Of a stretch of DNA of 20,000 nt, positions 1,620-19,578 are shown piece by piece. Source of the DNA: an uncultured virus (IMG/VR IMGVR_UViG_3300020577_011735). Its lineage: Duplodnaviria > Heunggongvirae > Uroviricota > Caudoviricetes. The DNA lies in IMG/VR virus record IMGVR_UViG_3300020577_011735; one strand, written 5' to 3'. Both the position numbers and the translations under genes were made by a program. The notes beneath the pieces were generated by a model that saw nothing but the letters and a program-made list of their open reading frames with translations, was not told the origin of the DNA and did not search any database. Numbering within the stretch: the stretch's first letter is position 1; each line of letters begins with the position of its first letter.

Positions 1620-1964
1620 ATGGGTAAATCTAAGCTTGATAGGGCTAATAAATTTATAAAATCTCAGGGGTTTGAAAATAACGTGCTGAGGTTTATACCT
1701 GATATAAGCCACATTAAGGTTAAGCCGGATGAGAATAAAAGGGGCTATTTTATAACCATTGTGCAGGATATAATAGAAGCCACGGATATTATTGATTACT
1801 TTACTGATCGGTTTAACAAAAGATTTTCAAAAAAGAATGAAAAGAATAAAATAGTATTTGAAGGATATTCACAAGGTGATAACAAAGGAAAGAAAGTCTC
1901 TATTATAAGATTTTATTATAGAGCAAATTTATTTGAAAGAAAATTATTATTTAAATCATTTTAA
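1620..1964 (+). CDS. Hypothetical protein
   Basis: 114-aa ORF in a co-directional array; TATATTTG at 1608-1615 just upstream. Confidence 0.65.
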   Translation: MGKSKLDRANKFIKSQGFENNVLRFIPDISHIKVKPDENKRGYFITIVQDIIEATDIIDYFTDRFNKRFSKKNEKNKIVFEGYSQGDNKGKKVSIIRFYYRANLFERKLLFKSF

Positions 1965-1967
1965 GTT

Positions 1968-2393
1968 ATGAGATTATTTGGAAAAATAAACGATAAATTT
2001 TCGGAGGAAATTCATAATCCTTTAGGATTAGAAACAGTTGATGGAAAAATTCCAATTCCACCCAAGCCTATTTTATATGGCAATAAATTTAAAATAAAAA
2101 TTTCTACCAGTGATAAGGCATCATCAATGGCAAATGCTTTGCATAATATATCTATATTCGGTATTTATCGTATAAACGCGTCAACTGACATAGCAAATTT
2201 TATAGCCTATCATCTCAATAAAATGAGTAAACAATTTTATACTGAAACGCTAGAAAAACTAGCTGATGATTACAGTTGTTTACCTGAATTAGGAAATCAG
2301 GAGTATTGCACAATAAGCTTTGAACTAAATAAGCAACAAACTATAGAGTTTATGGAGTTAATTGAAAAAGCAAGTCAAGGGGTTTCTATTTAA
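1968..2393 (+). CDS. Hypothetical protein
   Basis: 141-aa ORF, 3 nt after the previous stop. Confidence 0.65.
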   Translation: MRLFGKINDKFSEEIHNPLGLETVDGKIPIPPKPILYGNKFKIKISTSDKASSMANALHNISIFGIYRINASTDIANFIAYHLNKMSKQFYTETLEKLADDYSCLPELGNQEYCTISFELNKQQTIEFMELIEKASQGVSI

Positions 2394-2435
2394 ATATTAT
2401 CCAAACATTTCTATCCTTATATCATATAAAACAAT

Positions 2436-2567
2436 ATGAATAGGGAAGAAAAATTAAAAAAATTAGAGAGCCTGAAAAGGAAAGCTACAGAGCTTAAGAA
2501 GGACGTTGATTACTACAACGCAATTCAGACAGCTTTGAAGTTGGTACTTAATGGTTCTTATGTTTAG
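2436..2567 (+). CDS. Family B DNA polymerase, fingers helix and first half of motif B (5' segment of the interrupted gene)
   Basis: Below the ORF-track cutoff. Manual translation gives MNREEKLKKLESLKRKATELKKDVDYYNAIQTALKLVLNGSYV* (43 aa). QxAxKxxxNxxY is PolB motif B up to the conserved Tyr. Confidence 0.9.
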   Translation: MNREEKLKKLESLKRKATELKKDVDYYNAIQTALKLVLNGSYV

Positions 2568-2601
2568 TCCCCTTGCTGAAAGGTGAGGGGACAAAATGAA
2601 A
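2562..2601 (+). other. 40-nt intervening element (stop codon plus GNRA hairpin) splitting PolB motif B
   Basis: GTTTAGTCCCCTTGCTGAAAGGTGAGGGGACAAAATGAAA. Stem 2567-2577 pairs with 2582-2592 around a GAAA loop. Deleting it joins TAT(Y) to GGA(G) in frame. The boundary is ambiguous by 1 nt (2563..2602 is equivalent). Confidence 0.85.
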
Positions 2602-3891
2602 GGAGCATTCGCAACACAGTATTTCATACTGTTTAATGAACACGTAGCTGGTACTATTACCGCTCAGGGTCGTGACCTAACACAAACAATGCATCATGTG
2701 AATGAGGACTATTGGTATAATCAGTGGCACCTTGATACAGAATTGCATAAGAATCTCTGTGTTAAGAATGTGACACAGATATCTAAAGATGAAGGAGTTT
2801 CTATCTATGCGGATACTGACTCTCTATTCGTCTCTTTTAAGCCTGCAATTGATCACTCTGATTGGAAGAATTTAATCTTCAACAATATAAATGGTCTCAA
2901 AGATAGTTTTGTTGTATTGGAACATGCACACACAACCAAGATAGACAATGCAAATTGTCTAGGCACAGTTAATAATGTCAATGATTTAAAATCATTCTTA
3001 GAGTCAAATAATCCTAAAATAATTGTAATTGATGGTTATTATGTTAAGAATAGAGATTTAAAAAATGTAGATTTAAAAGATAAGAGAATTTTATGGAACT
3101 GGTCTAACGAACTAGATTATATACACGGAATTGACCATTTTAGATATGGTGGTTACTTTAAAAAGCAACTAGAAGAGTACGCTGATAAGTATGGTGTAGA
3201 AAATAAGGAAGACTTTGAATTAGAAAGAATATCAGAATCAATCATTAATATTGCTAAAAAGAAATATATTCAACATATTGTATATGAAGATGGTATTCCT
3301 TATGATAGATTAACCTATATGTATCCGAAAGGTGTTGAGCTCGTTAGATCGTCTACACCTTTGTTTGCAAGAGATAAGATTGTAGGAATTATCAAATATC
3401 TATTTAGTAATCCAGAAACCTTTAATATAAAAGAATTGTTGAAATTGGTTAAGGGATTAAGAAAAGAGTTTGATCTTTGTGTTCCTGATAAAATTGATGA
3501 AATAGCAATGCAATCATCCTGTTCTAATTATGAAGAAAAAGTATTGAACGATAAGAATAAATTAGAGTTTGTTAGTGGCGCTCACTTTGCAGTAAAAGCA
3601 AGTGCTTACTATAACTACCTTCTACATAAGAACGTTTCATTACATGAGAAGTATGAGTATATAAAATCTGGTACTAAAATTAAATATTATTATTGTAAAA
3701 ATAAATCAGTTAATGATATTTTTGCGTATATTCGTGGAACATATCCAGTTGAAATGGCACCAGATATTGATTTAGATGTTCAGTTTGAGAAATCAATTTT
3801 ATCACCAATAAATTCGATCATTGCACCATTAGGATTACCAGAAATAAATAAGAGATTGAGTGTTGTAATGGACATATTTGGTGGGGAATAA
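2596..3891 (+). CDS. polB: Family B DNA polymerase, C-terminal part (end of motif B, palm motif C, thumb); T4 gp43-like
   Basis: GAFATQYF...ITAQGR (after motif B), YADTDS (motif C), AKKKY, KGVELVRSSTP, and thumb motifs KIKYYY and IDLDVQFEK. No exonuclease domain or motif A is present in the window. Confidence 0.93.
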   Translation: MKGAFATQYFILFNEHVAGTITAQGRDLTQTMHHVNEDYWYNQWHLDTELHKNLCVKNVTQISKDEGVSIYADTDSLFVSFKPAIDHSDWKNLIFNNINGLKDSFVVLEHAHTTKIDNANCLGTVNNVNDLKSFLESNNPKIIVIDGYYVKNRDLKNVDLKDKRILWNWSNELDYIHGIDHFRYGGYFKKQLEEYADKYGVENKEDFELERISESIINIAKKKYIQHIVYEDGIPYDRLTYMYPKGVELVRSSTPLFARDKIVGIIKYLFSNPETFNIKELLKLVKGLRKEFDLCVPDKIDEIAMQSSCSNYEEKVLNDKNKLEFVSGAHFAVKASAYYNYLLHKNVSLHEKYEYIKSGTKIKYYYCKNKSVNDIFAYIRGTYPVEMAPDIDLDVQFEKSILSPINSIIAPLGLPEINKRLSVVMDIFGGE

Positions 3892-3910
3892 TTTAATATA
3901 AAAATCTATA

Positions 3911-4381
3911 ATGAGGAAAAATACATATAAAATACCAGCGATTGGATCTTGTGAGGTGTGTAAAAAAAAGAATGTTAATTTAACAAGAACATATTTTCAT
4001 TACGATAATGTAAAATGCTCTTGTCATTCGCCGAATCACTTTATAGTAATTGATCATTGTGATACTTGTGTTCCGGTAGAGCCAGCTGAGACAAAAATTC
4101 ATATTAAAACAAAAGATTTAGATAGCCCAATTGATAAGCTATCTATATCATTGCGTGATGATGAGGGTTATTATATATCATGGAAATCAAATATTGCTAT
4201 GGCTTTCTATGATGTTTTTATAAATAAATCTAATATTTCAAATCAAGAAATTCACAAATTATCAAATCAAGCTGCTGATAATTTTTTACAATTATTAATT
4301 TATCCTGAATCAGCGGCATCACATAGAAATAAAAAAATTGAAAAAATAATAGGTGTTGAATATATTGAATTAAAAAAATAA
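3911..4381 (+). CDS. Hypothetical protein with N-terminal Cys/His-rich Zn-binding region
   Basis: CEVC...CSCH...HCDTC; C-terminal RNKKIEKII tag. Confidence 0.7.
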   Translation: MRKNTYKIPAIGSCEVCKKKNVNLTRTYFHYDNVKCSCHSPNHFIVIDHCDTCVPVEPAETKIHIKTKDLDSPIDKLSISLRDDEGYYISWKSNIAMAFYDVFINKSNISNQEIHKLSNQAADNFLQLLIYPESAASHRNKKIEKIIGVEYIELKK

Positions 4382-4437
4382 AAAATGGAATACAGATATT
4401 TCAATAAAAATAGAAAGGAGAATTAAAATTTTAAATA

Positions 4438-4896
4438 ATGATAAGTAAAGTAATAATAGAAAATGAATTCTTTGATGAATTAGTTGAAGTTGCAAGAAAA
4501 TCAACTTGCCACCGATCTAAATGTGGATCTATAATCGTTAAAGATGGTAAAATAATTGGTGCTGGATATAACTCACAACCTTGTAATGTCGAGGGTGAGT
4601 GCTTTAAAGATTTTTTACCTAGTGAATTTAAGAGTGATAAGACTTGTTGCATTCATGCTGAACAGCGGGCTATCTTTGATGCACTTAAAAGAAATGGAAA
4701 TATGTTAGAGGGTAGTATATTGTTCTTTATTCGGTTAGATGAGAATGATAATCCAAAGAGATCTGGTGATCCATATTGTACAATATGTAGTAAATCAGCT
4801 TTGGATGTTGGCATAAGTAAATTTTGCTTATGGCATCAATCTGGATGGACAGCATATGAAACCGAATATTATAATAAATTATCCTTTAAATTATGA
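4438..4896 (+). CDS. dCMP deaminase / cytidine deaminase family protein
   Basis: KSTC..SKCGSIIVKDGKIIGAGYN, HAEQRA (HxE) and PYCTIC (CxxC) zinc-binding motifs. Confidence 0.9.
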   Translation: MISKVIIENEFFDELVEVARKSTCHRSKCGSIIVKDGKIIGAGYNSQPCNVEGECFKDFLPSEFKSDKTCCIHAEQRAIFDALKRNGNMLEGSILFFIRLDENDNPKRSGDPYCTICSKSALDVGISKFCLWHQSGWTAYETEYYNKLSFKL

Positions 4897-5184: not shown

Positions 5185-5416
5185 ATACTTCGATACCTTT
5201 TCTGAAGCTGAAAATTATTTTAATGAAGTTAAAGAACATAGTAAATATGTATGTTTTTTATATAGTCATCATGCATATTCAGAAGGATATTGGATTGAGT
5301 TTGAAAATCCAACCAATTTATTTGGTACAATAATAAATATTCACGATATTGTAGATATTAGGGATGAAAAAATAAGAGAAATATTAAATGAAAAAGAGAA
5401 AGATATTAGTATTTAG
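5174..5416 (+). CDS. Hypothetical protein
   Basis: 80-aa ORF with the RDEKIREIL tag near the C-terminus. Confidence 0.7.
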   Translation: MQSRYFDTFSEAENYFNEVKEHSKYVCFLYSHHAYSEGYWIEFENPTNLFGTIINIHDIVDIRDEKIREILNEKEKDISI

Positions 5417-6107
5417 CGGAGCTGGTGTTTCCGCTGAAAGTGGAGTGAAAACATTTAGGGATCACGGTGGACTATGGGATAATTTCAAAGTAGAAGATGT
5501 TGCAACAATTGATGCTTGGAATGCAAACCCTCAACCAGTTATAGATTTTTATAACTTTAGAAGAAAGGAATTAAATGGAGTTTCTCCTAATCAAGCTCAC
5601 TACACTATTGCTGAGTTGGAAAAGGATTTTGATGTTACTGTATCAACACAAAATGTTGATGATTTGCATGAAAGAGCTGGTTCAAGCAATGTAATACATC
5701 TACATGGTGAATTAACCAAACTTAAAAGTGAAACAGATGACACTATCCTAAAATCATTTGATATTGATTTGAAGTTAGGAGACTTGGCACCAGATGGTGG
5801 TCAATGGAGACCTGATATTGTTTGGTTTGGTGAAGATTTAGATTTTATGAGAATGCATAATACTAAAGTTGCTGCTCAAGAATGTGATGTCTGTATTATT
5901 GTAGGTACTTCTATGAAAGTATCTCCTGCAAATGGAATTCCTTGGCAGACAAAAGAAACGACAATTATTTACTATGTTGATCCAGGTGATATGGATTTCT
6001 ATGTTCCTGAATATAGGAGAGGATTTTTCTATCACATACAAAAGCCTGCGACTGAAGGCATGAAAGAGGTTATGGATGATTTAAAAGAAATTTATCTTAA
6101 TCAATAA
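5388..6107 (+). CDS. cobB: Sir2/CobB-family NAD-dependent protein deacylase
   Basis: GAGVSAESGVKTFRD, PNQAH, TQNVDDLHERAG, HLHG, RPDIVWFGE and VGTS motifs. The Zn-ribbon cysteines are absent. Confidence 0.95.
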   Translation: MKKRKILVFSGAGVSAESGVKTFRDHGGLWDNFKVEDVATIDAWNANPQPVIDFYNFRRKELNGVSPNQAHYTIAELEKDFDVTVSTQNVDDLHERAGSSNVIHLHGELTKLKSETDDTILKSFDIDLKLGDLAPDGGQWRPDIVWFGEDLDFMRMHNTKVAAQECDVCIIVGTSMKVSPANGIPWQTKETTIIYYVDPGDMDFYVPEYRRGFFYHIQKPATEGMKEVMDDLKEIYLNQ

Positions 6108-8211: not shown

Positions 8212-8688
8212 ATGATTAAATTGATAAGAAAAATCAAAGAAATTTACAGGGCTGAGCATTTACATTTTTTATTCGTAGATTATTCATTTTACAAAAAGTG
8301 GAAGTGGATAATTCGTATTGTAATTTTAATGAATAAAAGATATGTTTCTTGTGAAATATTTAGAAAGAAATACAAAATACATAAAAACTTGGTTATCATT
8401 GGATTAAAATGGAATGGAAAAAATGTCAAAAGAAGAACCAATGGATATGCAAAAGGACATCTTGAAGAAAACCAGGGATTAAAATGTATCTATTGTGATA
8501 AACTATTAACCACAGAAAATGCAACTTCTGATCATATTGTTCCAATATCGAATGGTGGAAATAATTGTCAAGTAAATATCGTTATCTGTTGCACAGATTG
8601 TAATAACGAAAGAGGTAATTTGGATTTTGAAACATATTTAAAAATGAAGAATATAAACTACAAGGATCAAAAACATCCTTTTGTTTAG
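8212..8688 (+). CDS. HNH endonuclease (McrA/HNH_5-like)
   Basis: CIYC...ATSDHIVPISNGGNN...NIVICCTDCNNERG. The true start may be downstream of 8212. Confidence 0.88.
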   Translation: MIKLIRKIKEIYRAEHLHFLFVDYSFYKKWKWIIRIVILMNKRYVSCEIFRKKYKIHKNLVIIGLKWNGKNVKRRTNGYAKGHLEENQGLKCIYCDKLLTTENATSDHIVPISNGGNNCQVNIVICCTDCNNERGNLDFETYLKMKNINYKDQKHPFV

Positions 8689-12420: not shown

Positions 12421-14370
12421 ATGTGTAAAAATACCAATCATACTCATGAGAGTATATTAAAATTTGACAATTTCTTATTAGAAAGTAAAATTGCTAAATT
12501 ATTACTTGAAGGAAATTTAATGGCATCTGATAAGTTTCTTACCCGATTATCAGGTATAAATAATAATCATATCGCTATTGACCTTTTAAAAGCATTTTCC
12601 GATAAAACATTTATTGATAAGGATCTACCACAAAACTGGGTTGATATAACAGATAAAGAGGATACCGTTAGCTTTATGGCAGATAGGGGAGCTAATAAGA
12701 TAATGCATGCGGGCGGTGATCCAGAGTTAATATTTACGTCTAAAAGTAGAAATGAAGTTAAAGTTGGTAGATTTGCAAGAGCAATTCTAACTGAGTTAGG
12801 TAAAACAGTTAGTGATAAGGATATTGAAAACTTCGTTAATATCTATAAATCATCAAAAGTAGACACATCTAAAAAATTTGAATTAGTTAGTGGATCACTA
12901 ATTAAGAAATATTATTTATATAGCAACTATTCGAAAAATACTGGATCATTGGGTGGATCTTGTATGAGAGGTAATGATTGTCAGAGATACTTTAAAATTT
13001 ACACAAAGAATCCAGAAGCTTGCCAATTATTAGTTTATCTTGATGAACAAGGTAAAGTATTGGGAAGAGCTCTTGTATGGAAAATTTTCAAAAAAGAATT
13101 ATATAAAACACCTGATCAAACTAAATTTGAGTGTGAATCAGAATATTTTATGGATAGAGTATACACTGCTAATGATTCTGATGTTATTAAATTTATAAAT
13201 TATGCTAAAGAAAAAGGATGGATTTATAAACAAAAAATGACTTCAGATGAAAGATTAGGATTAATATTTAAATATGGAGATCAAATAATTTTTGGTAAAT
13301 TAATAGTTAAACTTCATAGATTACATTTTAGTAAATACCCATTTGTAGATACACTATCTTTTTCAGATGGTGATTCAATGATAAGTAATGTTGGGTTTAC
13401 TATTGATGATGATGACGATGATGCTGATGAAGGATTTATTATGTGTGACACCGAAGGTAACCATGAATCTTGTAGCAATTGTGATGGAACAGGATATGAT
13501 GATGATGATGGGACGGAATGTAAAAAATGTGATGGAGATGGTGAGGTGATCTGTACAATATGTCGAGGTGGTGGTAATATAATATGTACAAAGTGTGATG
13601 GAGGCGGAGATATAAAATGTATTACTTGTGATGGAGATGGAGATGTTACTTGTACAGACTGTAACGGGGAGGGAGATATAAATTGTGCTGATTGTGATGG
13701 GAATGGACACAAAGAATGTAATACCTGTCATGGTGAAGGTGATATGGGTGAATGTAAGGCGTGTGATGGTCAATCATATGTTACTTGTGCTGATTGTAAA
13801 GGAGAGCCAATTACTTGTACTGGATGTAAAGGTGTAGGTGAAATAACTAGAAAATGGGGTAAGGGGACTAGAAGGGTTAAATGTCCAGACTGTGGCGGTG
13901 CCGGAAAAGCATCAAGTGGTGAAATTGGGAGAGAAGGATGTCGTTGTAAATCATGTTCAGTAGTAGGTTGGGATAAAACGTGGCGTAATAGACTTGAGGT
14001 ACCCTGTAAACAATGTGATGGTGAAGGTGTAATAGTTTGTAAAACTTGTAAAGATGAAGACGACCCCGGTCAAATTGAATGTAGGACATGTAAAGGACAA
14101 GGTACTAAAAGATGTACAAAATGTAATTGGGGTAGTATAGAGTGTAAAGATTGTAATGGAAGTGGAAGCAAGGGAGAGTGTAAAGACTGTAAAGGGAGTG
14201 GAAAACTTGGCAAATGTAAAACTTGTAAAGGCGGTCAAGTTAAATGTGATGTTTGTAATGGCACCGGAGATAGACCTAAAGGAAGTGATAAAGAACTTTG
14301 CCCTGAATGTGCAGGATTACTTAATGAACTTAAAAAAGATTTAGCGACAAACAAATATAGAATATTATAA
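12421..14370 (+). CDS. Large protein: globular domain (GSCM...GRALVW...MDRVY) plus 22 DnaJ-type CxxC(xGxG) zinc-finger motifs
   Basis: 649 aa; CxxC motifs counted from 13471 to 14316. No J-domain HPD motif, so it is not DnaJ. Confidence 0.85.
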   Translation: MCKNTNHTHESILKFDNFLLESKIAKLLLEGNLMASDKFLTRLSGINNNHIAIDLLKAFSDKTFIDKDLPQNWVDITDKEDTVSFMADRGANKIMHAGGDPELIFTSKSRNEVKVGRFARAILTELGKTVSDKDIENFVNIYKSSKVDTSKKFELVSGSLIKKYYLYSNYSKNTGSLGGSCMRGNDCQRYFKIYTKNPEACQLLVYLDEQGKVLGRALVWKIFKKELYKTPDQTKFECESEYFMDRVYTANDSDVIKFINYAKEKGWIYKQKMTSDERLGLIFKYGDQIIFGKLIVKLHRLHFSKYPFVDTLSFSDGDSMISNVGFTIDDDDDDADEGFIMCDTEGNHESCSNCDGTGYDDDDGTECKKCDGDGEVICTICRGGGNIICTKCDGGGDIKCITCDGDGDVTCTDCNGEGDINCADCDGNGHKECNTCHGEGDMGECKACDGQSYVTCADCKGEPITCTGCKGVGEITRKWGKGTRRVKCPDCGGAGKASSGEIGREGCRCKSCSVVGWDKTWRNRLEVPCKQCDGEGVIVCKTCKDEDDPGQIECRTCKGQGTKRCTKCNWGSIECKDCNGSGSKGECKDCKGSGKLGKCKTCKGGQVKCDVCNGTGDRPKGSDKELCPECAGLLNELKKDLATNKYRIL

Positions 14371-16208: not shown

Positions 16209-16874
16209 ATGAACAATCAAAAAGATTTTAGAAATTACCTCACCAAACATCATAGAATAAATAGCCTTGTAGTAGACGACTATTATAACTATCAAAACAA
16301 TACTCACCATATAATAGATGATAACATAAATGGAGTTATAGTAGATGTTTATTCTAAACTGGTAGAAAGTCGAATCATATTTTTATCTACCGAAATGGAG
16401 TCAGACGTTTGTAATTTAATAAAAGCACAACTACTCTATTTAGAACAGATAGGAGATGATGATATTAAAATATACATTGATTCACCCGGAGGATCTGTTT
16501 ATTCGGGACTAGGGTTACTAGATACAATTGAGTTTGTTAAGCCGGATATAATTACAATTAACACAGGATTAGCGGCTTCTATGGCAGCACTTATATTATG
16601 TAGTGGAACAAAAGGCAAAAGAAAGGCTTTAAAAAGATCAAGAACAATGATACATCAGCCATTAGGTTACACTGGATTTGCACAAGCATCTGATATCGAG
16701 ATTGATGCTAGACAAATAAACAATCTTAAAAAAGACTTATATGAAATCATTTCTGAAATGACAGGTCAAGCATATGATAAGGTTTCTCAAGATGGAGACA
16801 GAGATTATTGGATGAATGCTACTGAAGCAAAAAGATATGGTATGATTGATGAAATTATTTCTAAAAGAAAGTAA
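16209..16874 (+). CDS. clpP: ATP-dependent Clp protease proteolytic subunit
   Basis: DVYSKL..SRIIFL, AQLLYL, YIDSPGGSV; catalytic Ser in GLAASMA, His in MIHQP and Asp in DRDYWM; YGMIDEI. Confidence 0.96.
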   Translation: MNNQKDFRNYLTKHHRINSLVVDDYYNYQNNTHHIIDDNINGVIVDVYSKLVESRIIFLSTEMESDVCNLIKAQLLYLEQIGDDDIKIYIDSPGGSVYSGLGLLDTIEFVKPDIITINTGLAASMAALILCSGTKGKRKALKRSRTMIHQPLGYTGFAQASDIEIDARQINNLKKDLYEIISEMTGQAYDKVSQDGDRDYWMNATEAKRYGMIDEIISKRK

Positions 16875-16971: not shown

Positions 16972-17391
16972 ATGTTAGTAAAAAATAGATATGAGGTGCA
17001 TAATACTCGCCAGACAAAAAAGAAAAGCGTCTTACGTATTCTTTTTTATTATTATACTTTTAAGCTATTTGGCCTAATGTATAAAATAAATAAAAAAATA
17101 ATTAAAATGTCAGACAATTTTTTTAAAAAAATCCAGAAAAAACTATTTGAAGAATTCATAACAAAAAAGGGAATCATTGAATTCACAACAGGAGACCATG
17201 AAGTATTCGTTAGAACTAAATGCGAATCGCACGAAAAAGTGTGGATACACATTGTAGATGATTCAGACCCGACTTGTAGTTATTTAGATAACGACATGTT
17301 TACTGTTAAAGATAAAGAAGTTCGTCATGGGTTCATTATACTAGCTCACATCGAGTCAAATAGTAGAAAAGTCTATTGGTTTATAAAATGA
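16972..17391 (+). CDS. Hypothetical protein (true start may be ATG 17107)
   Basis: ORF overlaps the next gene; TTAATATATA at 16945-16954 upstream. Confidence 0.55.
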   Translation: MLVKNRYEVHNTRQTKKKSVLRILFYYYTFKLFGLMYKINKKIIKMSDNFFKKIQKKLFEEFITKKGIIEFTTGDHEVFVRTKCESHEKVWIHIVDDSDPTCSYLDNDMFTVKDKEVRHGFIILAHIESNSRKVYWFIK

Positions 17392-18365
17392 TTATTTTCG
17401 TTTATGGTTGGTACAACCATGATAACTTAGGGGACGAAAGCTATAAATCTTCATTTAAGAAGACATGGCCAGAACATGAATTTACATTTTCAGATAAGGT
17501 TTTAGATGAGGATGTAAATAAGTATGATCTATGTATTATAGGAGGTGGTGATGTTATAAGAGAAAAGAGCCTTAAGCATATTTCCAGACTCAATTGTCCT
17601 AAAATATCAATATCAGTAACCATAACCTCCTTATCACTATTCCCAGATATTCATATATTAGATCATATATATGTACGCGATATGTCATCATATGATAATT
17701 TAGTTAAATTTGGATATAATAAGGTAACATATATTCCAGATATTTCCATTATTCTAGGAGGAGATAAAGAAAACGGTAATAAATTAATATCACAATTATT
17801 TGAAAAAAATAAATGTGATAAATATAATAAAGTTTATACTATTGTTGTTAATTCACATTTAGTCGGGAACTCTAATACATCTTTTAAGGATAAAATAATG
17901 TTTTTTAAAATGATAAACGATACGGTTGAATGTATAGATAGTACATCTGCGTCATTTTTATTTTTACCATTTTCAACGTCATTGCCTTGGGATGATAGAA
18001 TATCTAATGGATTGGTTAACTCATATTCTAAATTTTATAAAAAAAATTGTGTAATATACGATAGCTTATCAGTTAGTGATTCAATAGATATTATATCTGC
18101 AAGTGATATGATTATATCTAGTAGGTTCCATGGTTTAATATTTGGATTGGGAAATAATATCCCAACTGTTACAATAAGCTTTCATGATAAAATGAGCGGA
18201 TTTTGTGATACAATAGGGAAAAGTTACATAGATTATTGGAATTTTTCAGCATCAGAATTAAATAAACATATAAATAAATCTGAAGTGGTAAATATAGATA
18301 GAGAAAAAATTAAACAAGAATATCGTGAAAAAATACATTTCTTATGGAAAGGACAAGTCGATTAA
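17388..18365 (+). CDS. Polysaccharide pyruvyl transferase family protein (CsaB/WcaK-like)
   Basis: GWYNHDNLGD, IGGGD, YVRD, IPD and SSRFHGLIF motifs. ATG 17388 is preferred over 17376 because it gives a 4-nt overlap. Confidence 0.85.
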   Translation: MIIFVYGWYNHDNLGDESYKSSFKKTWPEHEFTFSDKVLDEDVNKYDLCIIGGGDVIREKSLKHISRLNCPKISISVTITSLSLFPDIHILDHIYVRDMSSYDNLVKFGYNKVTYIPDISIILGGDKENGNKLISQLFEKNKCDKYNKVYTIVVNSHLVGNSNTSFKDKIMFFKMINDTVECIDSTSASFLFLPFSTSLPWDDRISNGLVNSYSKFYKKNCVIYDSLSVSDSIDIISASDMIISSRFHGLIFGLGNNIPTVTISFHDKMSGFCDTIGKSYIDYWNFSASELNKHINKSEVVNIDREKIKQEYREKIHFLWKGQVD

Positions 18366-19578
18366 GGTTATATCAACATCTGATTTTGAACTAGTAGATT
18401 CAAAAGGCCATGTTGCAAAAACAGATGATCCAATAAGCTTATATCAAAAATTTATTAAAAAGGAAGATAAAGATACCCCTATTAAAATAGGGTATATTTG
18501 TAATTGGAATCAACAATGTGGCATATCAACTTATTCAAAATTTATATTTGATGAATTAAAATCACTTGTTGATGAATATAAGATATTCTCTGAGCTTCCT
18601 TTTGACCAAGAAGAAGATACAAAAGAAAATATTGTTTACTGTTGGAGGAGAGGGGAACATCTCAAAAAGTTATTAAATGAAATTAAAGAATATAATCCAA
18701 ATTTTATATTAATTCAACATGAATGGGGTATTTTTCCAAAAGCCGGATTTTTCATGTCCTTTATTACTGAATTAAAAAGATTACACATTCCAGTTATAGT
18801 TGCCCTACATAGTGTATATGATCACCTAGATAAAATAATTCCACTATCTGTATTAGATAATGTTATCGTTCATTCAAGTAATGCTAAAGGATTATTAGAG
18901 AGACTTAAATTTAAAGGAAATGTATTTGTAATTCCACATGGATGCCCTGAGGTTAAAAAATATGAAGAAGTTTGGAACATATTTCAAACACCTTATTTAA
19001 TTTTTGGATTTGGATTCGGGTTTAAATATAAAGGAGTAGAAATAGCAATAGATGCTATTAAATACTTAAAAGAAACTGATGAAAAATTTAAAGATATTTT
19101 ATACGTTTACGTTTGCTCTGAAAGTGATACTAACAAAGGAATACATGAATATTATTATAATACTCTATCAGAAAAAGTTGAGAAAGAAGGATTGGAAAAC
19201 AATGTTCTTTTAATTAGAGGATTTCTAGAAGATGAAATGCTTGATGTCTATTTAAAAACTGTTAAGATGGTTATATTTCCATATATATCTGATCCGACTA
19301 ATAGTGTATTTGGATCATCAGGGGCGATTAAAATAGCAATGTCATATAATATACCAGTTATCGCATCTAAATCACACTTATTTGATGATATAGAAGGATA
19401 TGCAATAAGAATTGGTGAATATAAAGAGTTAGCAATTGAGATTGATAAATTATTTAGTAGCGAAGATTATAGAAACCAAGTCATAGATAAAGCACATGAA
19501 TACATTGAAGAAAATACCTGGAAAAAAAGTGCTGAAAGATATTTTGATGTTATCAAAGAGGTTAGAGGATTGTATTAA
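18325..19578 (+). CDS. GT4 (GT-B fold) glycosyltransferase
   Basis: CGISTYS, IQHEWG, VIPHG, FGF..KYKGVE, FPY...SSGAIKIAMSYNIPVIAS. Confidence 0.88.
   Translation: MKKYISYGKDKSIKVISTSDFELVDSKGHVAKTDDPISLYQKFIKKEDKDTPIKIGYICNWNQQCGISTYSKFIFDELKSLVDEYKIFSELPFDQEEDTKENIVYCWRRGEHLKKLLNEIKEYNPNFILIQHEWGIFPKAGFFMSFITELKRLHIPVIVALHSVYDHLDKIIPLSVLDNVIVHSSNAKGLLERLKFKGNVFVIPHGCPEVKKYEEVWNIFQTPYLIFGFGFGFKYKGVEIAIDAIKYLKETDEKFKDILYVYVCSESDTNKGIHEYYYNTLSEKVEKEGLENNVLLIRGFLEDEMLDVYLKTVKMVIFPYISDPTNSVFGSSGAIKIAMSYNIPVIASKSHLFDDIEGYAIRIGEYKELAIEIDKLFSSEDYRNQVIDKAHEYIEENTWKKSAERYFDVIKEVRGLY

Follow-up and report, generated by a model that had tools for sequence, protein, structure and literature searches.

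The C-terminal gene of a split family B DNA polymerase, carried on a 20,000-nt stretch of DNA from an uncultured virus of the class Caudoviricetes (the window, whose features are all given here on the plus strand), is interrupted in its motif B by a 40-nt insert (2562-2601) placed between the Tyr and Gly codons. The insert is best explained, with a probability of about 0.6, as a candidate translational-bypass cassette, a new and non-homologous counterpart of the T4 gene 60/MobA cassette. Comparison with related loci shows that it belongs to a family of such inserts in the C-terminal gene of the split family B DNA polymerase of huge phages, a family that would, as a bypass system, be previously undescribed.

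The upstream open reading frame (2436-2567) encodes 43 amino acids ending in KLVLNGSYV and closes with TAG, and the downstream one (2596-3891) encodes 431 amino acids beginning with MKGAFATQYF, in the +1 frame relative to the first. Deletion of 2562-2601, or equally of 2563-2602, joins Tyr42 to Gly within a 471-aa protein, and motif B, which is whole only once these 40 nt are removed, then becomes identical in alignment to the uninterrupted motif of LR756502.1 and LR745206.1. An earlier note, made from the letters alone, had described a stop-plus-hairpin element whose exact removal repairs the motif, and these uninterrupted relatives confirm it. Exon 1 (2436-2561) runs from the start codon to Tyr42 and comprises 42 codons for a basic N-terminal peptide and the K..N..Y part of motif B, while exon 2 (2602-3891) begins with the Gly of motif B and ends with the stop codon. 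The cistron starts at the same position in relatives with and without inserts, and the basic 42-codon peptide is the same in insert-free relatives, with no cassette-specific nascent-peptide signal visible.

The putative take-off codon, TAT (2559-2561, Tyr42), is the last codon common to the uninterrupted relatives (junction mapping, n = 102/103). It is followed by a 6-nt leader (2562-2567), made up of the sense codon GTT and the in-frame TAG at the hairpin foot, and by a hairpin (2567-2592) with an 11-bp stem (2567-2577 paired with 2582-2592), a GAAA tetraloop and three G-U pairs that allow it to form in sense-strand RNA only. The 3' part (2593-2601) consists of an A-rich spacer (2593-2598) and of the triplet abutting exon 2, AAA (2599-2601), at the presumptive landing position. 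An in-frame ATG (2596-2598) lies two codons 5' of exon 2, with the G-rich run GAGGGG, which belongs to the 3' arm of the hairpin, ending 4 nt upstream of it and 7 nt upstream of the landing AAA. The minimum-free-energy (MFE) fold of 2540-2625 has -31.1 kcal/mol (z = -4.5), a fold equalled by 0 of 200 shuffles, and it includes pairing of the flanks (2550-2565 with 2594-2609), so extending the helix that ATG 2596 is itself paired in it. The G+C content is 45% in the insert against 28.8% in the window, and no U-tract lies 3' of the hairpin; in these respects the earlier description of the element holds throughout. Reading past TAG meets TGA three codons on and a +1 shift meets TGA at 2584-2586, as had been foreseen, and because the gap is 40 nt long with a stop codon in every frame, it is unreadable by plain translation. 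Within the 20-kb window there is no second such hairpin inside coding sequence and no tRNA gene; a search of region 2350-2750 against Rfam returned nothing at E up to 1, and megablast of 1900-4400 against phage records returned no match.

The insert is genuine DNA. A sequencing run spanning it, possibly the source run, shows 0 differences, and an independent DNA run from another study provides contigs over 2000-2580 and 2587-2767, likewise with 0 differences, which answers the earlier concern about misassembly; the window allele was seen in runs from several studies and years. The identity of the interrupted gene as the C-terminal half of the polymerase is given by a PF00136 match (E 6.8e-11) and by motif C (YADTDS) and KKKY in ORF 2596-3891. 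Three relatives were searched whole, LR756502.1 (642 kb) and two others with a completeness rating of 98%. In each, a single N-half gene and a single C-half gene lie far from one another, with no spare C-half gene in any of the three, one of which (G002) carries a cassette. A PF03104 match in the closest relative of the window (G001) was considered as its polymerase N-half and rejected, being a 263-aa stand-alone exonuclease-like ORF that is DnaQ-like by eye. Between the window and G001, exon 2 differs at 18 of 1287 nt and 2 of 429 aa (dN/dS 0.03), and the C-half gene is under strong purifying selection. Given this ratio, the single C-half gene of the searched relatives and the recurrence of the same allele in an independent run, the gene must still work, in agreement with what the earlier note had proposed.

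Similar inserts are widespread among huge phages, being present in 50 of 76 evaluated loci on viral contigs and, as one cassette, in 35 of 72 metagenome loci, with two cassettes in one further locus (L144). In the pooled loci, 85 have one cassette and 60 are intact, and the downstream frames of the cassette-bearing loci (85/145) are intact. The alignment of homologues thus revealed what had been asked of it, an insert absent from some relatives and present with co-varying stems in others. There are 56 distinct cassettes of 36-49 nt, whose lengths fall into the three classes modulo 3 in the proportions 21/19/16, and all 56 are sense-oriented and lie at six codon boundaries inside 30 nt at motif B; none was found away from motif B in the DNA examined. 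Exact excision restores motif B in all 56, and where junctions were ambiguous (L077/L090, L087-89/L093) the chosen placement was the one common to sister cassettes that restored the motif exactly. A strict cassette DNA pattern run over the viral contigs hit five stretches, four of which either had no hairpin or did not interrupt a frame, leaving only that of G001 as real. The search for similar hairpins in other genes, suggested by the earlier note, came back empty, with no further copies in the window or in all 185 kb of G001, and the cassette is therefore not a dispersed repeat. Other C-run/G-run hairpins of the window and G001 were rejected as cassettes, as they are flanked by A- and T-runs and are terminator-like.

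The cassettes share a common layout of take-off codon, 5-6 nt, a C-run/G-run hairpin, 4-8 nt and a landing triplet. The distance from take-off codon to stem is 5-6 nt in 48/56, the stem including the take-off codon in 7 more, and the distance from stem to landing triplet is 4-8 nt in 53/56. The 52 distinct hairpins show compensatory changes, with pairs 3-9 canonical in 94-100% and represented by 4-7 pair types, and their G-U pairs function in the sense strand only; 20 of the 56 loops are GNRA and 3 are UUCG. An in-frame stop follows the take-off codon directly in 5/56 and after one sense codon in 41/56, a total of 46/56 distributed over all six sites. In 38/56 cassettes, moreover, the triplet next to exon 2 encodes the same amino acid as the final codon of exon 1, while at each of the control offsets from -1 to -6 nt this is so in 0/56. 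Cognate landing triplets occur in 21/21 cassettes at site A, 5/6 at A' (the exception, L129, being mismatched, GCT/GTT), 5/5 at B, 2/2 at D, 1/1 at E and 4/21 at site C, the Tyr/Gly boundary used in the window. At site A the take-off codon varies at its third position only (CTT, CTG, CTC), and the landing triplet is always CTA, although the spacers around it vary. At the take-off position all 21 site-C cassettes carry TAT or TAC, and 17 of their 21 landing triplets are non-cognate, with A at position 2 in 20/21 and C at position 3 in 10/21, against 5% C in the spacers. The AAA of the window is not cognate to the tRNA-Tyr of TAT and could pair with it at the middle base only. The earlier remark that take-off and landing codons do not match is thus correct for this allele (TAT and AAA) and does not extend to relatives at the five other sites or to four of the 21 cassettes at site C.

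In the mechanism proposed here, the ribosome would read 42 codons and reach TAT 2559-2561 holding peptidyl-tRNA-Tyr, where the stable hairpin 5-6 nt further on, at or in the A site, would block normal decoding, and the TAG at the hairpin foot would terminate those ribosomes that continue reading. The peptidyl-tRNA would be kept, the folded hairpin passed and translation resumed 4-8 nt past its 3' end, so that the next codon read would be GGA 2602, restoring motif B and giving the 471-aa protein. In most relatives the resume triplet is cognate to the take-off tRNA and at the Tyr/Gly site mostly only near-cognate; in the window allele, with its AAA, the landing point would depend chiefly on the geometry of the hairpin. 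According to one study, a stem-loop near the P-site codon can fill the A site and keep tRNA from binding (PMC7282821), although blockage was measured there at a distance of 11-12 nt and the hairpin here starts about 3 nt nearer to that codon. Also speaking against bypass are the non-cognate landing triplets of the window and of 17/21 site-C cassettes, and the position of the stop, mostly one codon past take-off, unlike most gene 60 cassettes. Gene 60 cassettes have a mini-SD 5-7 nt 5' of the landing codon, within A/U-rich flanks; such a role of the G-run is doubtful, since an SD-like motif is found at none of the 29 other candidate gene starts in the window. The two cassettes of L144, nine codons apart, would require two hops, which would be costly if each hop were inefficient.

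Stop and restart, a possibility that the earlier note had listed, is an unlikely account of the window allele. Translation would end at TAG 2565 and start, or restart, at ATG 2596, and the 43-aa peptide and 431-aa protein would assemble non-covalently, adding a third polymerase piece. The ATG stands in frame, two codons ahead of Gly and with GAGGGG 4 nt 5' of it, the polymerase of this lineage is already divided into N-half and C-half genes, Aeromonas phages are said to have a gp43 split by a short intercistronic spacer, the landing triplet here is non-cognate, and a sister cassette (L125) has GTG at the ATG position. On the other hand, an in-frame ATG, GTG or TTG within six triplets is found in only 7/56 cassettes, with ATG in that of the window alone; the close sister L118 has TCG at this position, and in several site-C cassettes the triplet immediately before Gly is an in-frame stop (TAA or TAG). 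The absence of SD-like motifs from the other 29 candidate starts and the pairing of the ATG in the MFE fold also count against it, and breaks at an invariant Tyr/Gly pair and at six points across phages are hard to fit to one fold. Restart via ATG 2596 keeps some force as a rival for this one allele.

Removal at the RNA level ranks behind restart and is likewise unlikely. In this account the insert would be a mini-intron cut by a structure-guided nuclease and joined by a trans-acting RNA ligase of the phage or its host. Precise removal does restore the motif in 56/56 cassettes, the junction-hairpin distances are fairly constant, which an enzyme gauging RNA structure would require, splicing would be indifferent to the non-cognate triplets of site C, and pairing between the exon flanks is predicted for 29/56 cassettes, including most of those at site C. 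Bypass is nevertheless favoured over splicing, because splicing leaves unexplained both the cognate last three nucleotides (38/56 against 0/56 at neighbouring offsets) and the in-frame stops that occupy +4 or +7 at each of the six sites. Flank pairing, which the earlier note had pointed out, is present in the MFE fold, but the bulge-helix-bulge-like geometry it had proposed is not, as the fold has single-base bulges and 1x1 loops rather than two 3-nt bulges around a 4-bp helix; a bulge-helix-bulge intron was rejected for this reason and because flank pairing reaches 29/56 only. Group I and group II introns were also rejected, with 0 Rfam matches and a length of 40 nt, far under ribozyme size. 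In RNA data, the junction is covered in run X16 only, and there only with the allele of a relative: a 1782-nt metatranscriptome contig (depth 27.5) retains the G001-type cassette, which counts weakly against excision, as the contig may come from carried-over DNA; run X15 has no contig there. Spliced joints are absent from the contigs of all runs, although contigs hide minor spliced forms. A dead or dying allele, in which the insert would inactivate this polymerase half and another polymerase or co-infecting helpers would serve the phage, is very improbable. It would be consistent with the non-cognate landing triplet, and the C-half copy number is known from the genomes of relatives rather than of this phage; against it stand the dN/dS of 0.03 that two cassette-bearing phages show 3' of the insert, the single C-half copy in each of three relatives, one with a cassette, the intact downstream frames in the 85/145 loci with cassettes, and the recurrence of the same allele across studies and years.

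The distribution of the proposed bypass cassettes is linked to a homing endonuclease. A homing-endonuclease homologue (DUF7487, in PHROG 'homing endonuclease') is found upstream, in antisense orientation, at 22/41 insert loci against 0/25 intact ones, and in the metagenome set in 19/24 against 0/20, with one exception, the intact locus L160, which has it. The nearest annotated relatives of this endonuclease, by tblastn against phages, are F-Lim-type homing endonucleases. The window and G001 have exchanged a tract (1920-2640) in which identity is 53-85%, compared with about 100% on both sides, and which takes in the cassette together with the beginning of the C-half gene and a 141-aa ORF upstream of it. 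The G001 version additionally has a 389-aa homing-endonuclease gene, and within the swapped tract the two phages have different cassettes at different sites; the window allele is without the endonuclease gene, which has been lost. A 130-row tree requires at least 37 changes of site label. On this comparative evidence the insert is an endonuclease-linked mobile cassette, as seen in the neighbouring gene, the patchy distribution and the exchange tract. It would travel together with a homing-endonuclease gene just 5' of the polymerase gene, and it probably shields the polymerase gene of its carrier from that nuclease, as proposed for T4 MobA and gene 60. The idea of a regulatory switch on phage replication found no support, and the endonuclease linkage points to a selfish mobile cassette instead.

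Long-range translational bypass has been demonstrated at the bench for T4 gene 60. A survey of gene 60 cassettes places every known natural relative of gene 60 in that one topoisomerase gene, cites yeast mitochondrial byps as the only other case, and reports GNRA and UUCG loop types (Manning and Atkins, bioRxiv 10.1101/2022.08.31.505936). The cassettes resemble the 50-nt bypass of T4 and its homologues in several ways: an essential replication gene, itself in pieces, contains an untranslated gap of tens of nucleotides, here 33-42 codons into the downstream cistron and in T4 46; take-off and landing codons can be read by one tRNA, with wobble variants allowed, and a stop lies at or beside take-off; the stem-loop co-varies and has UUCG or GNRA loops, and the A/U-rich spacer that leads up to landing is free of premature landing triplets; and a free-standing homing endonuclease is progressively lost while the gap remains, with many recent gains. 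By contrast, the host gene here encodes PolB motif B and not the Toprim domain of Topo2L, with no homology between cassettes, and the endonuclease is of DUF7487, with F-Lim-type relatives, antisense and upstream, and not MobA. Six insertion points are used here and one, plus or minus one codon, there, sometimes with two cassettes per gene here; the stop usually comes one codon after take-off, and the hairpin starts 5-6 nt past the take-off codon instead of including it as in gene 60 (it includes it in 7/56), landing at the Tyr/Gly site is mostly non-cognate, and the phage genes do not use SD motifs. Judged by these sequence features, the cassette is an analogue and not a member of the gene 60/MobA lineage.

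Lang et al. are said to have described in 2014 the byps of Magnusiomyces capitatus mitochondria, which are reportedly gaps of 27-55 nt with G+C-rich hairpins in conserved genes of an A+T-rich genome. They resemble the phage cassettes in their relaxed matching of take-off and landing and in the possibility of several gaps per gene, but they are dispersed, derive from mobile G+C clusters and involve unassigned codons rather than stops, whereas the cassettes described here keep within one 30-nt target, use stop codons and show linkage to a homing endonuclease. Petrov, Ratnayaka and Karam reportedly described in 2010 a short intercistronic untranslated sequence, IC-UTS, that splits gene 43 in the Aeromonas phages 44RR and 25. 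Here too a T4-type PolB gene carries a short insert that does not code, with homing-endonuclease traffic and a polymerase in pieces, and the case fits restart as an account of the window allele; IC-UTS, however, generally supplies a stop, a ribosome-binding site and a start, while ATG is present here in 1/56 cassettes and most lack any start. Archaeal bulge-helix-bulge introns and protein-dependent mini-introns are also tens of nucleotides long and precisely removed with the help of local RNA structure. The present cassettes differ from them in having no motif of two bulges and a 4-bp helix, in cognate landings and stops that such introns do not predict, and in an RNA-library contig that keeps the cassette. 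A literature search found no paper on bypassing in huge-phage polymerases.

More tentatively, and at less than even odds, the cassettes may represent a second, independently evolved long-range bypass system, spread in huge phages by a homing endonuclease, in which a hairpin set off by about 6 nt on each side would let ribosomes step over 36-49 nt in SD-free hosts, landing by geometry at the Tyr/Gly site and possibly hopping twice within ten codons. If bypass is the true explanation, the 56 natural variants at six sites, with their simple symmetric architecture and with or without cognate landing triplets, would form a natural mutagenesis series on ribosome take-off, sliding distance and landing register. 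It would also be an example of homing endonucleases establishing themselves, with no intron or intein involved, in the best-conserved motif of a polymerase that is essential. Additionally, gene callers split or truncate these polymerases, which affects marker-gene phylogenies and estimates of huge-phage completeness.

Within the window, whose G+C content is 28.8%, the polymerase gene is read on the plus strand as two ORFs, one of 43 aa (2436..2567) encoding the first part of PolB motif B, followed by Val and a final TAG, and one of 431 aa (2596..3891) that opens with Met-Lys, continues with the rest of motif B in the +1 frame and carries PF00136 and the motif C YADTDS. Between Tyr42 and Gly, the 40-nt insert (2562-2601) forms a hairpin (z = -4.5) whose 11-bp stem includes three G-U pairs and is capped by a GAAA loop. 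The ORFs, frames, insert and hairpin had all been described in the earlier note, and each of these statements proved correct on recheck. The insert is real DNA, since one run spans it with 0 differences and an independent DNA run from another study provides two contigs, one ending and one starting within the hairpin, also with 0 differences.

By tblastn, the polymerase fragment has its closest matches in two uncultured huge phages, at 69% aa identity in LR756502.1 (642 kb) and 66% in LR745206.1 (635 kb), with more remote ones in phages of Flavobacterium, Tenacibaculum, Chryseobacterium and Prevotella. Both of these huge phages lack an insert and have an uninterrupted motif B (alignment A1). 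The nearest relative, G001, is a 185-kb fragment collinear with the window at 91-96% identity. In the same alignment it lacks the window's 40 nt, though exon 2 (the part after the insert) differs at only 18/1287 nt, and it has instead a different 36-nt insert, 18 nt upstream of the window's insertion point. The two inserts share their build: a T-rich leader with an in-frame stop (TAA in G001), then a C-run and a G-run on either side of a GAAA loop, and finally an A-rich tail. Other genes of the window include a dCMP/cytidine deaminase, a Sir2-family protein, a ClpP protease, a polysaccharide pyruvyl transferase and a group-1 glycosyl transferase (4438-4896, 5388-6107, 16209-16874 and 17376-19578), with Pfam matches for the deaminase (PF00383), the Sir2-family protein (PF02146, E 5e-41) and ClpP (PF00574, E 7e-66); such auxiliary genes are typical of huge phages. 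A 649-aa protein (12421-14370, plus strand) has a C-terminal half made of a long run of CxxCxGxG-type zinc-finger repeats, with a weak, below-cut-off DnaJ_CXXCXGXG match, and a 268-nt part of its gene (13132-13399) has 70% identical copies elsewhere in G001.

Junctions in further relatives were mapped against 20 uninterrupted reference peptides. The IMG/VR set together with the window and the two GenBank loci (76 + 3 loci fetched, 76 evaluable) contains 50 loci with an insert and 26 intact ones, one more (L021) being judged intact by eye. Of 80 metagenome loci, 72 were evaluable (five lacked an anchor and three lay too close to a contig end): 35 have one cassette, one (L144) has two, 34 are intact, one (L185) scored too low to call, and in one (L150) 24 nt are inserted or duplicated in frame in the part of the polymerase C-half gene that encodes its basic N-terminal peptide, an unrelated change that was not counted as a cassette. 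The two sets partly overlap through common contigs, and therefore distinct sequences were counted; pooled, one cassette is found in 85 loci, 60 loci are intact, and 56 cassettes are distinct.

These cassettes measure 36-49 nt, and their lengths do not favour multiples of three (length mod 3 = 21/19/16). They occupy six codon boundaries, all within 30 nt, and are always in sense orientation. Distinct cassettes number six at site A' (Ala/Leu), 21 at site A (Leu/Lys), five at site B (Val/Leu, including that of G001), two at site D (Gly/Ser), one at site E (Ser/Tyr) and 21 at site C (Tyr/Gly, including the window's). Measured from the start of the presumed take-off codon (the last codon of exon 1), the C-run begins at +10 in 40 cassettes, at +11 in 12 and at +9 in three, the single remaining value being an artefact of a C-rich leader. 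The outermost stem pair lies 5-6 nt from the take-off codon in 48/56, a longer stem taking in the codon in seven more, and the stem is 4-8 nt from the landing triplet, which abuts exon 2, in 53/56. An in-frame stop follows the take-off codon directly in five of the 56 and after one sense codon in 41. The stems covary: among 52 distinct hairpin sequences, pairs 3-9 are 94-100% canonical (88% for pair 9) with four to seven pair types each, and the numerous G-U pairs would turn into mismatches on the opposite strand. The loops are GNRA in 20 and UUCG in three. Scans of the rest of the window, of G001 over its 185 kb and of the 2.5-kb regions flanking the IMG/VR and two GenBank loci found no other hairpin of this kind.

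In 38/56 cassettes the landing triplet is synonymous with the take-off codon. Cognate pairs make up 21/21 at site A (CTT, CTG or CTC to CTA), 5/6 at site A' (GCT or GCC to GCT or GCA), 5/5 at site B (GTT to GTA or GTT), 2/2 at site D (GGT to GGT), 1/1 at site E (TCT to TCA) and 4/21 at site C (TAT to TAT or TAC). At each control offset, 1 to 6 nt towards the hairpin, synonymous triplets occur in 0/56, which also means that no premature cognate triplet lies in the spacer. At site A both codon copies are conserved between variable spacers, the upstream copy changing at third positions only. A cognate triplet and a stop are exactly what a ribosome moving its peptidyl-tRNA from take-off codon to landing triplet needs, and this signature points to the ribosome. 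Take-off and landing triplets, a stop, co-varying stem-loops with UUCG or GNRA loops, and A/U-rich spacers are the defining features that a preprint on T4 gene 60 gives for its cassette (Manning and Atkins, bioRxiv 10.1101/2022.08.31.505936). Translational bypassing, one of three mechanisms suggested in the earlier note, is accordingly taken as the best reading, with a probability of roughly 0.6.

The weak point of bypassing for the window's own allele is its non-cognate landing triplet together with an in-frame ATG. At site C the landing triplet is non-cognate in 17/21 cassettes (AAC 5, TAA 4, AAA 3 with the window's included, and TAG, AAT, GAC, AGC and CAA 1 each). Position 2 is A in 20/21 site-C triplets and position 3 is C in 10/21, against 5% C in spacers, so these triplets are still enriched for bases with which tRNA-Tyr could pair; AAA offers it only the middle base. 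P-site re-pairing has considerable latitude, as noted in the same preprint (Manning and Atkins). Termination followed by restart at the ATG is unlikely but is kept as a real rival for the window's allele, because AAA is non-cognate and this is the sole cassette with an in-frame ATG, two codons before Gly. It cannot be the general route, because an in-frame ATG, GTG or TTG lies within six triplets of exon 2 in only 7/56 cassettes and in several cassettes an in-frame stop immediately precedes exon 2; at the position of the window's ATG, one sister cassette has GTG and another TCG.

Excision of the cassette from the RNA, proposed in the earlier note as a mini-intron, is quite unlikely: neither the cognate triplet that ends the excised piece on its 3' side nor the in-frame stop, placed at +4 or +7 in each of six independent sites, serves any purpose in splicing. 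In a metatranscriptome run, a relative is represented by a 1782-nt contig (depth 27.5) that keeps a G001-type cassette, and no cassette-free joint was seen in any run; this is at most a hint that the mRNA is not spliced, because RNA libraries can contain DNA and contigs hide minor forms. A dead allele is very improbable, and the C-half gene has to be functional. Whole-record searches covered three relatives (LR756502.1 and two records of 483 and 597 kb rated 98% complete). In each, separate genes over 100 kb from one another encode the two halves of the polymerase: an N-half ORF of 515-531 aa, and a single-copy C-half, which in the 483-kb record bears a site-A cassette. Exon 2 is under purifying selection (dN/dS 0.03, window versus G001). 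In seven relatives (L061, L062, L074, L076, L087-L089) an intein-like ORF ending in ...VHN lies directly before the Ser of motif C (just before ...SLFVSF), and some C-halves thus seem to combine a motif-B cassette with a motif-C intein, whose Pfam match (Intein_splicing, E 8.9e-5 for L061) is below the curated cut-off. In L068-L072 the C-half match is about 500 nt longer than the window's (2501-4288/4314), indicating a further insertion within the gene.

The cassettes are linked to an endonuclease gene. In G001, a 389-aa antisense ORF between the upstream gene and the C-half gene has matches to DUF7487 (E 1.8e-23) and to two PHROG families annotated 'homing endonuclease', and in a phage tblastn search the annotated proteins closest to it are F-Lim-type homing endonucleases. 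Where 1300 nt or more of upstream sequence is available, a homologue, whole or remnant, occupies the same place in 22/41 insert-bearing versus 0/25 intact IMG/VR loci (Fisher p 1.6e-6) and in 19/24 versus 0/20 metagenome loci (p 3e-8); the rows are not phylogenetically independent, and the gene is nonetheless present at all six sites. The one exception found, with less upstream sequence, is a metagenome locus (L160) with an intact motif B and a homologue upstream (36% identity, cut by the contig end). Identity between window and G001 is about 100% at 1560-1919 and 2640-3900 and only 53-85% across 1920-2640, a tract that takes in the upstream ORF, the beginning of the polymerase gene, the cassette and, in G001, also the endonuclease gene. 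The upstream ORF of the window (141 aa, 1968-2393, plus strand) lacks Pfam or PHROG matches, has a shorter, diverged counterpart in G001 (83-96 aa) and may move together with the cassette. In a FastTree tree of exon-2 proteins (130 rows, from loci whose frame runs 380 aa or more to a stop), at least 37 changes of site label and at least 21 of insert presence are needed (shuffled labels, mean 61). Because of the swapped tract and these changes, the cassette is taken to be often gained, lost and swapped, like the MobA/gene 60 element. In the gene 60 case, the gap is proposed to shield its carrier from its own nuclease (Manning and Atkins). Elsewhere, the window encodes a free-standing 158-aa HNH endonuclease (8212-8688, plus strand; PF14279 HNH_5, E 2.4e-11) 4.3 kb downstream of the polymerase gene, and at another G001 locus (65464-68769, L097) a 259-aa ORF with a GIY-YIG-like N-terminus, recognized by eye, directly precedes a 263-aa stand-alone 3'-5' exonuclease-like ORF; the 259-aa ORF may encode a further homing endonuclease neighbouring a replication gene.

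Literature searches turned up no account of bypassing in a polymerase gene of huge phages or of any other phage, and the preprint places gene-60-type cassettes exclusively in the topoisomerase gene (Manning and Atkins). The huge-phage cassettes have no sequence in common with gene 60 and involve another gene, the polymerase, and another endonuclease. In the proposed bypass, the ribosome would stall with the take-off codon in the P site, since the foot of the hairpin follows 5-6 nt later; stem-loops close to a P-site codon can insert into the A site and keep tRNA from binding (PMC7282821), and compared with that measured case the loop in the cassettes is about 3 nt closer. The stop at the hairpin foot would eliminate ribosomes that continue decoding, and the others would slide beyond the hairpin, ribosomes being described as able to slide without codon-anticodon contact (PMC11194080), and would resume 4-8 nt past it. 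The symmetry of about 6 nt on each side suggests that the hairpin, refolded behind the ribosome, helps set the register, which would suit a host without Shine-Dalgarno pairing; 0/29 other candidate starts of the window have a Shine-Dalgarno-like motif. In the metagenome locus with two cassettes (L144), about 200 nt before the end of motif B, a site-A cassette (CTT TTT TAA ... CTA) is followed nine codons on by a site-C cassette (TAT GCT TAG ... TAA), an arrangement that would require two successive hops.
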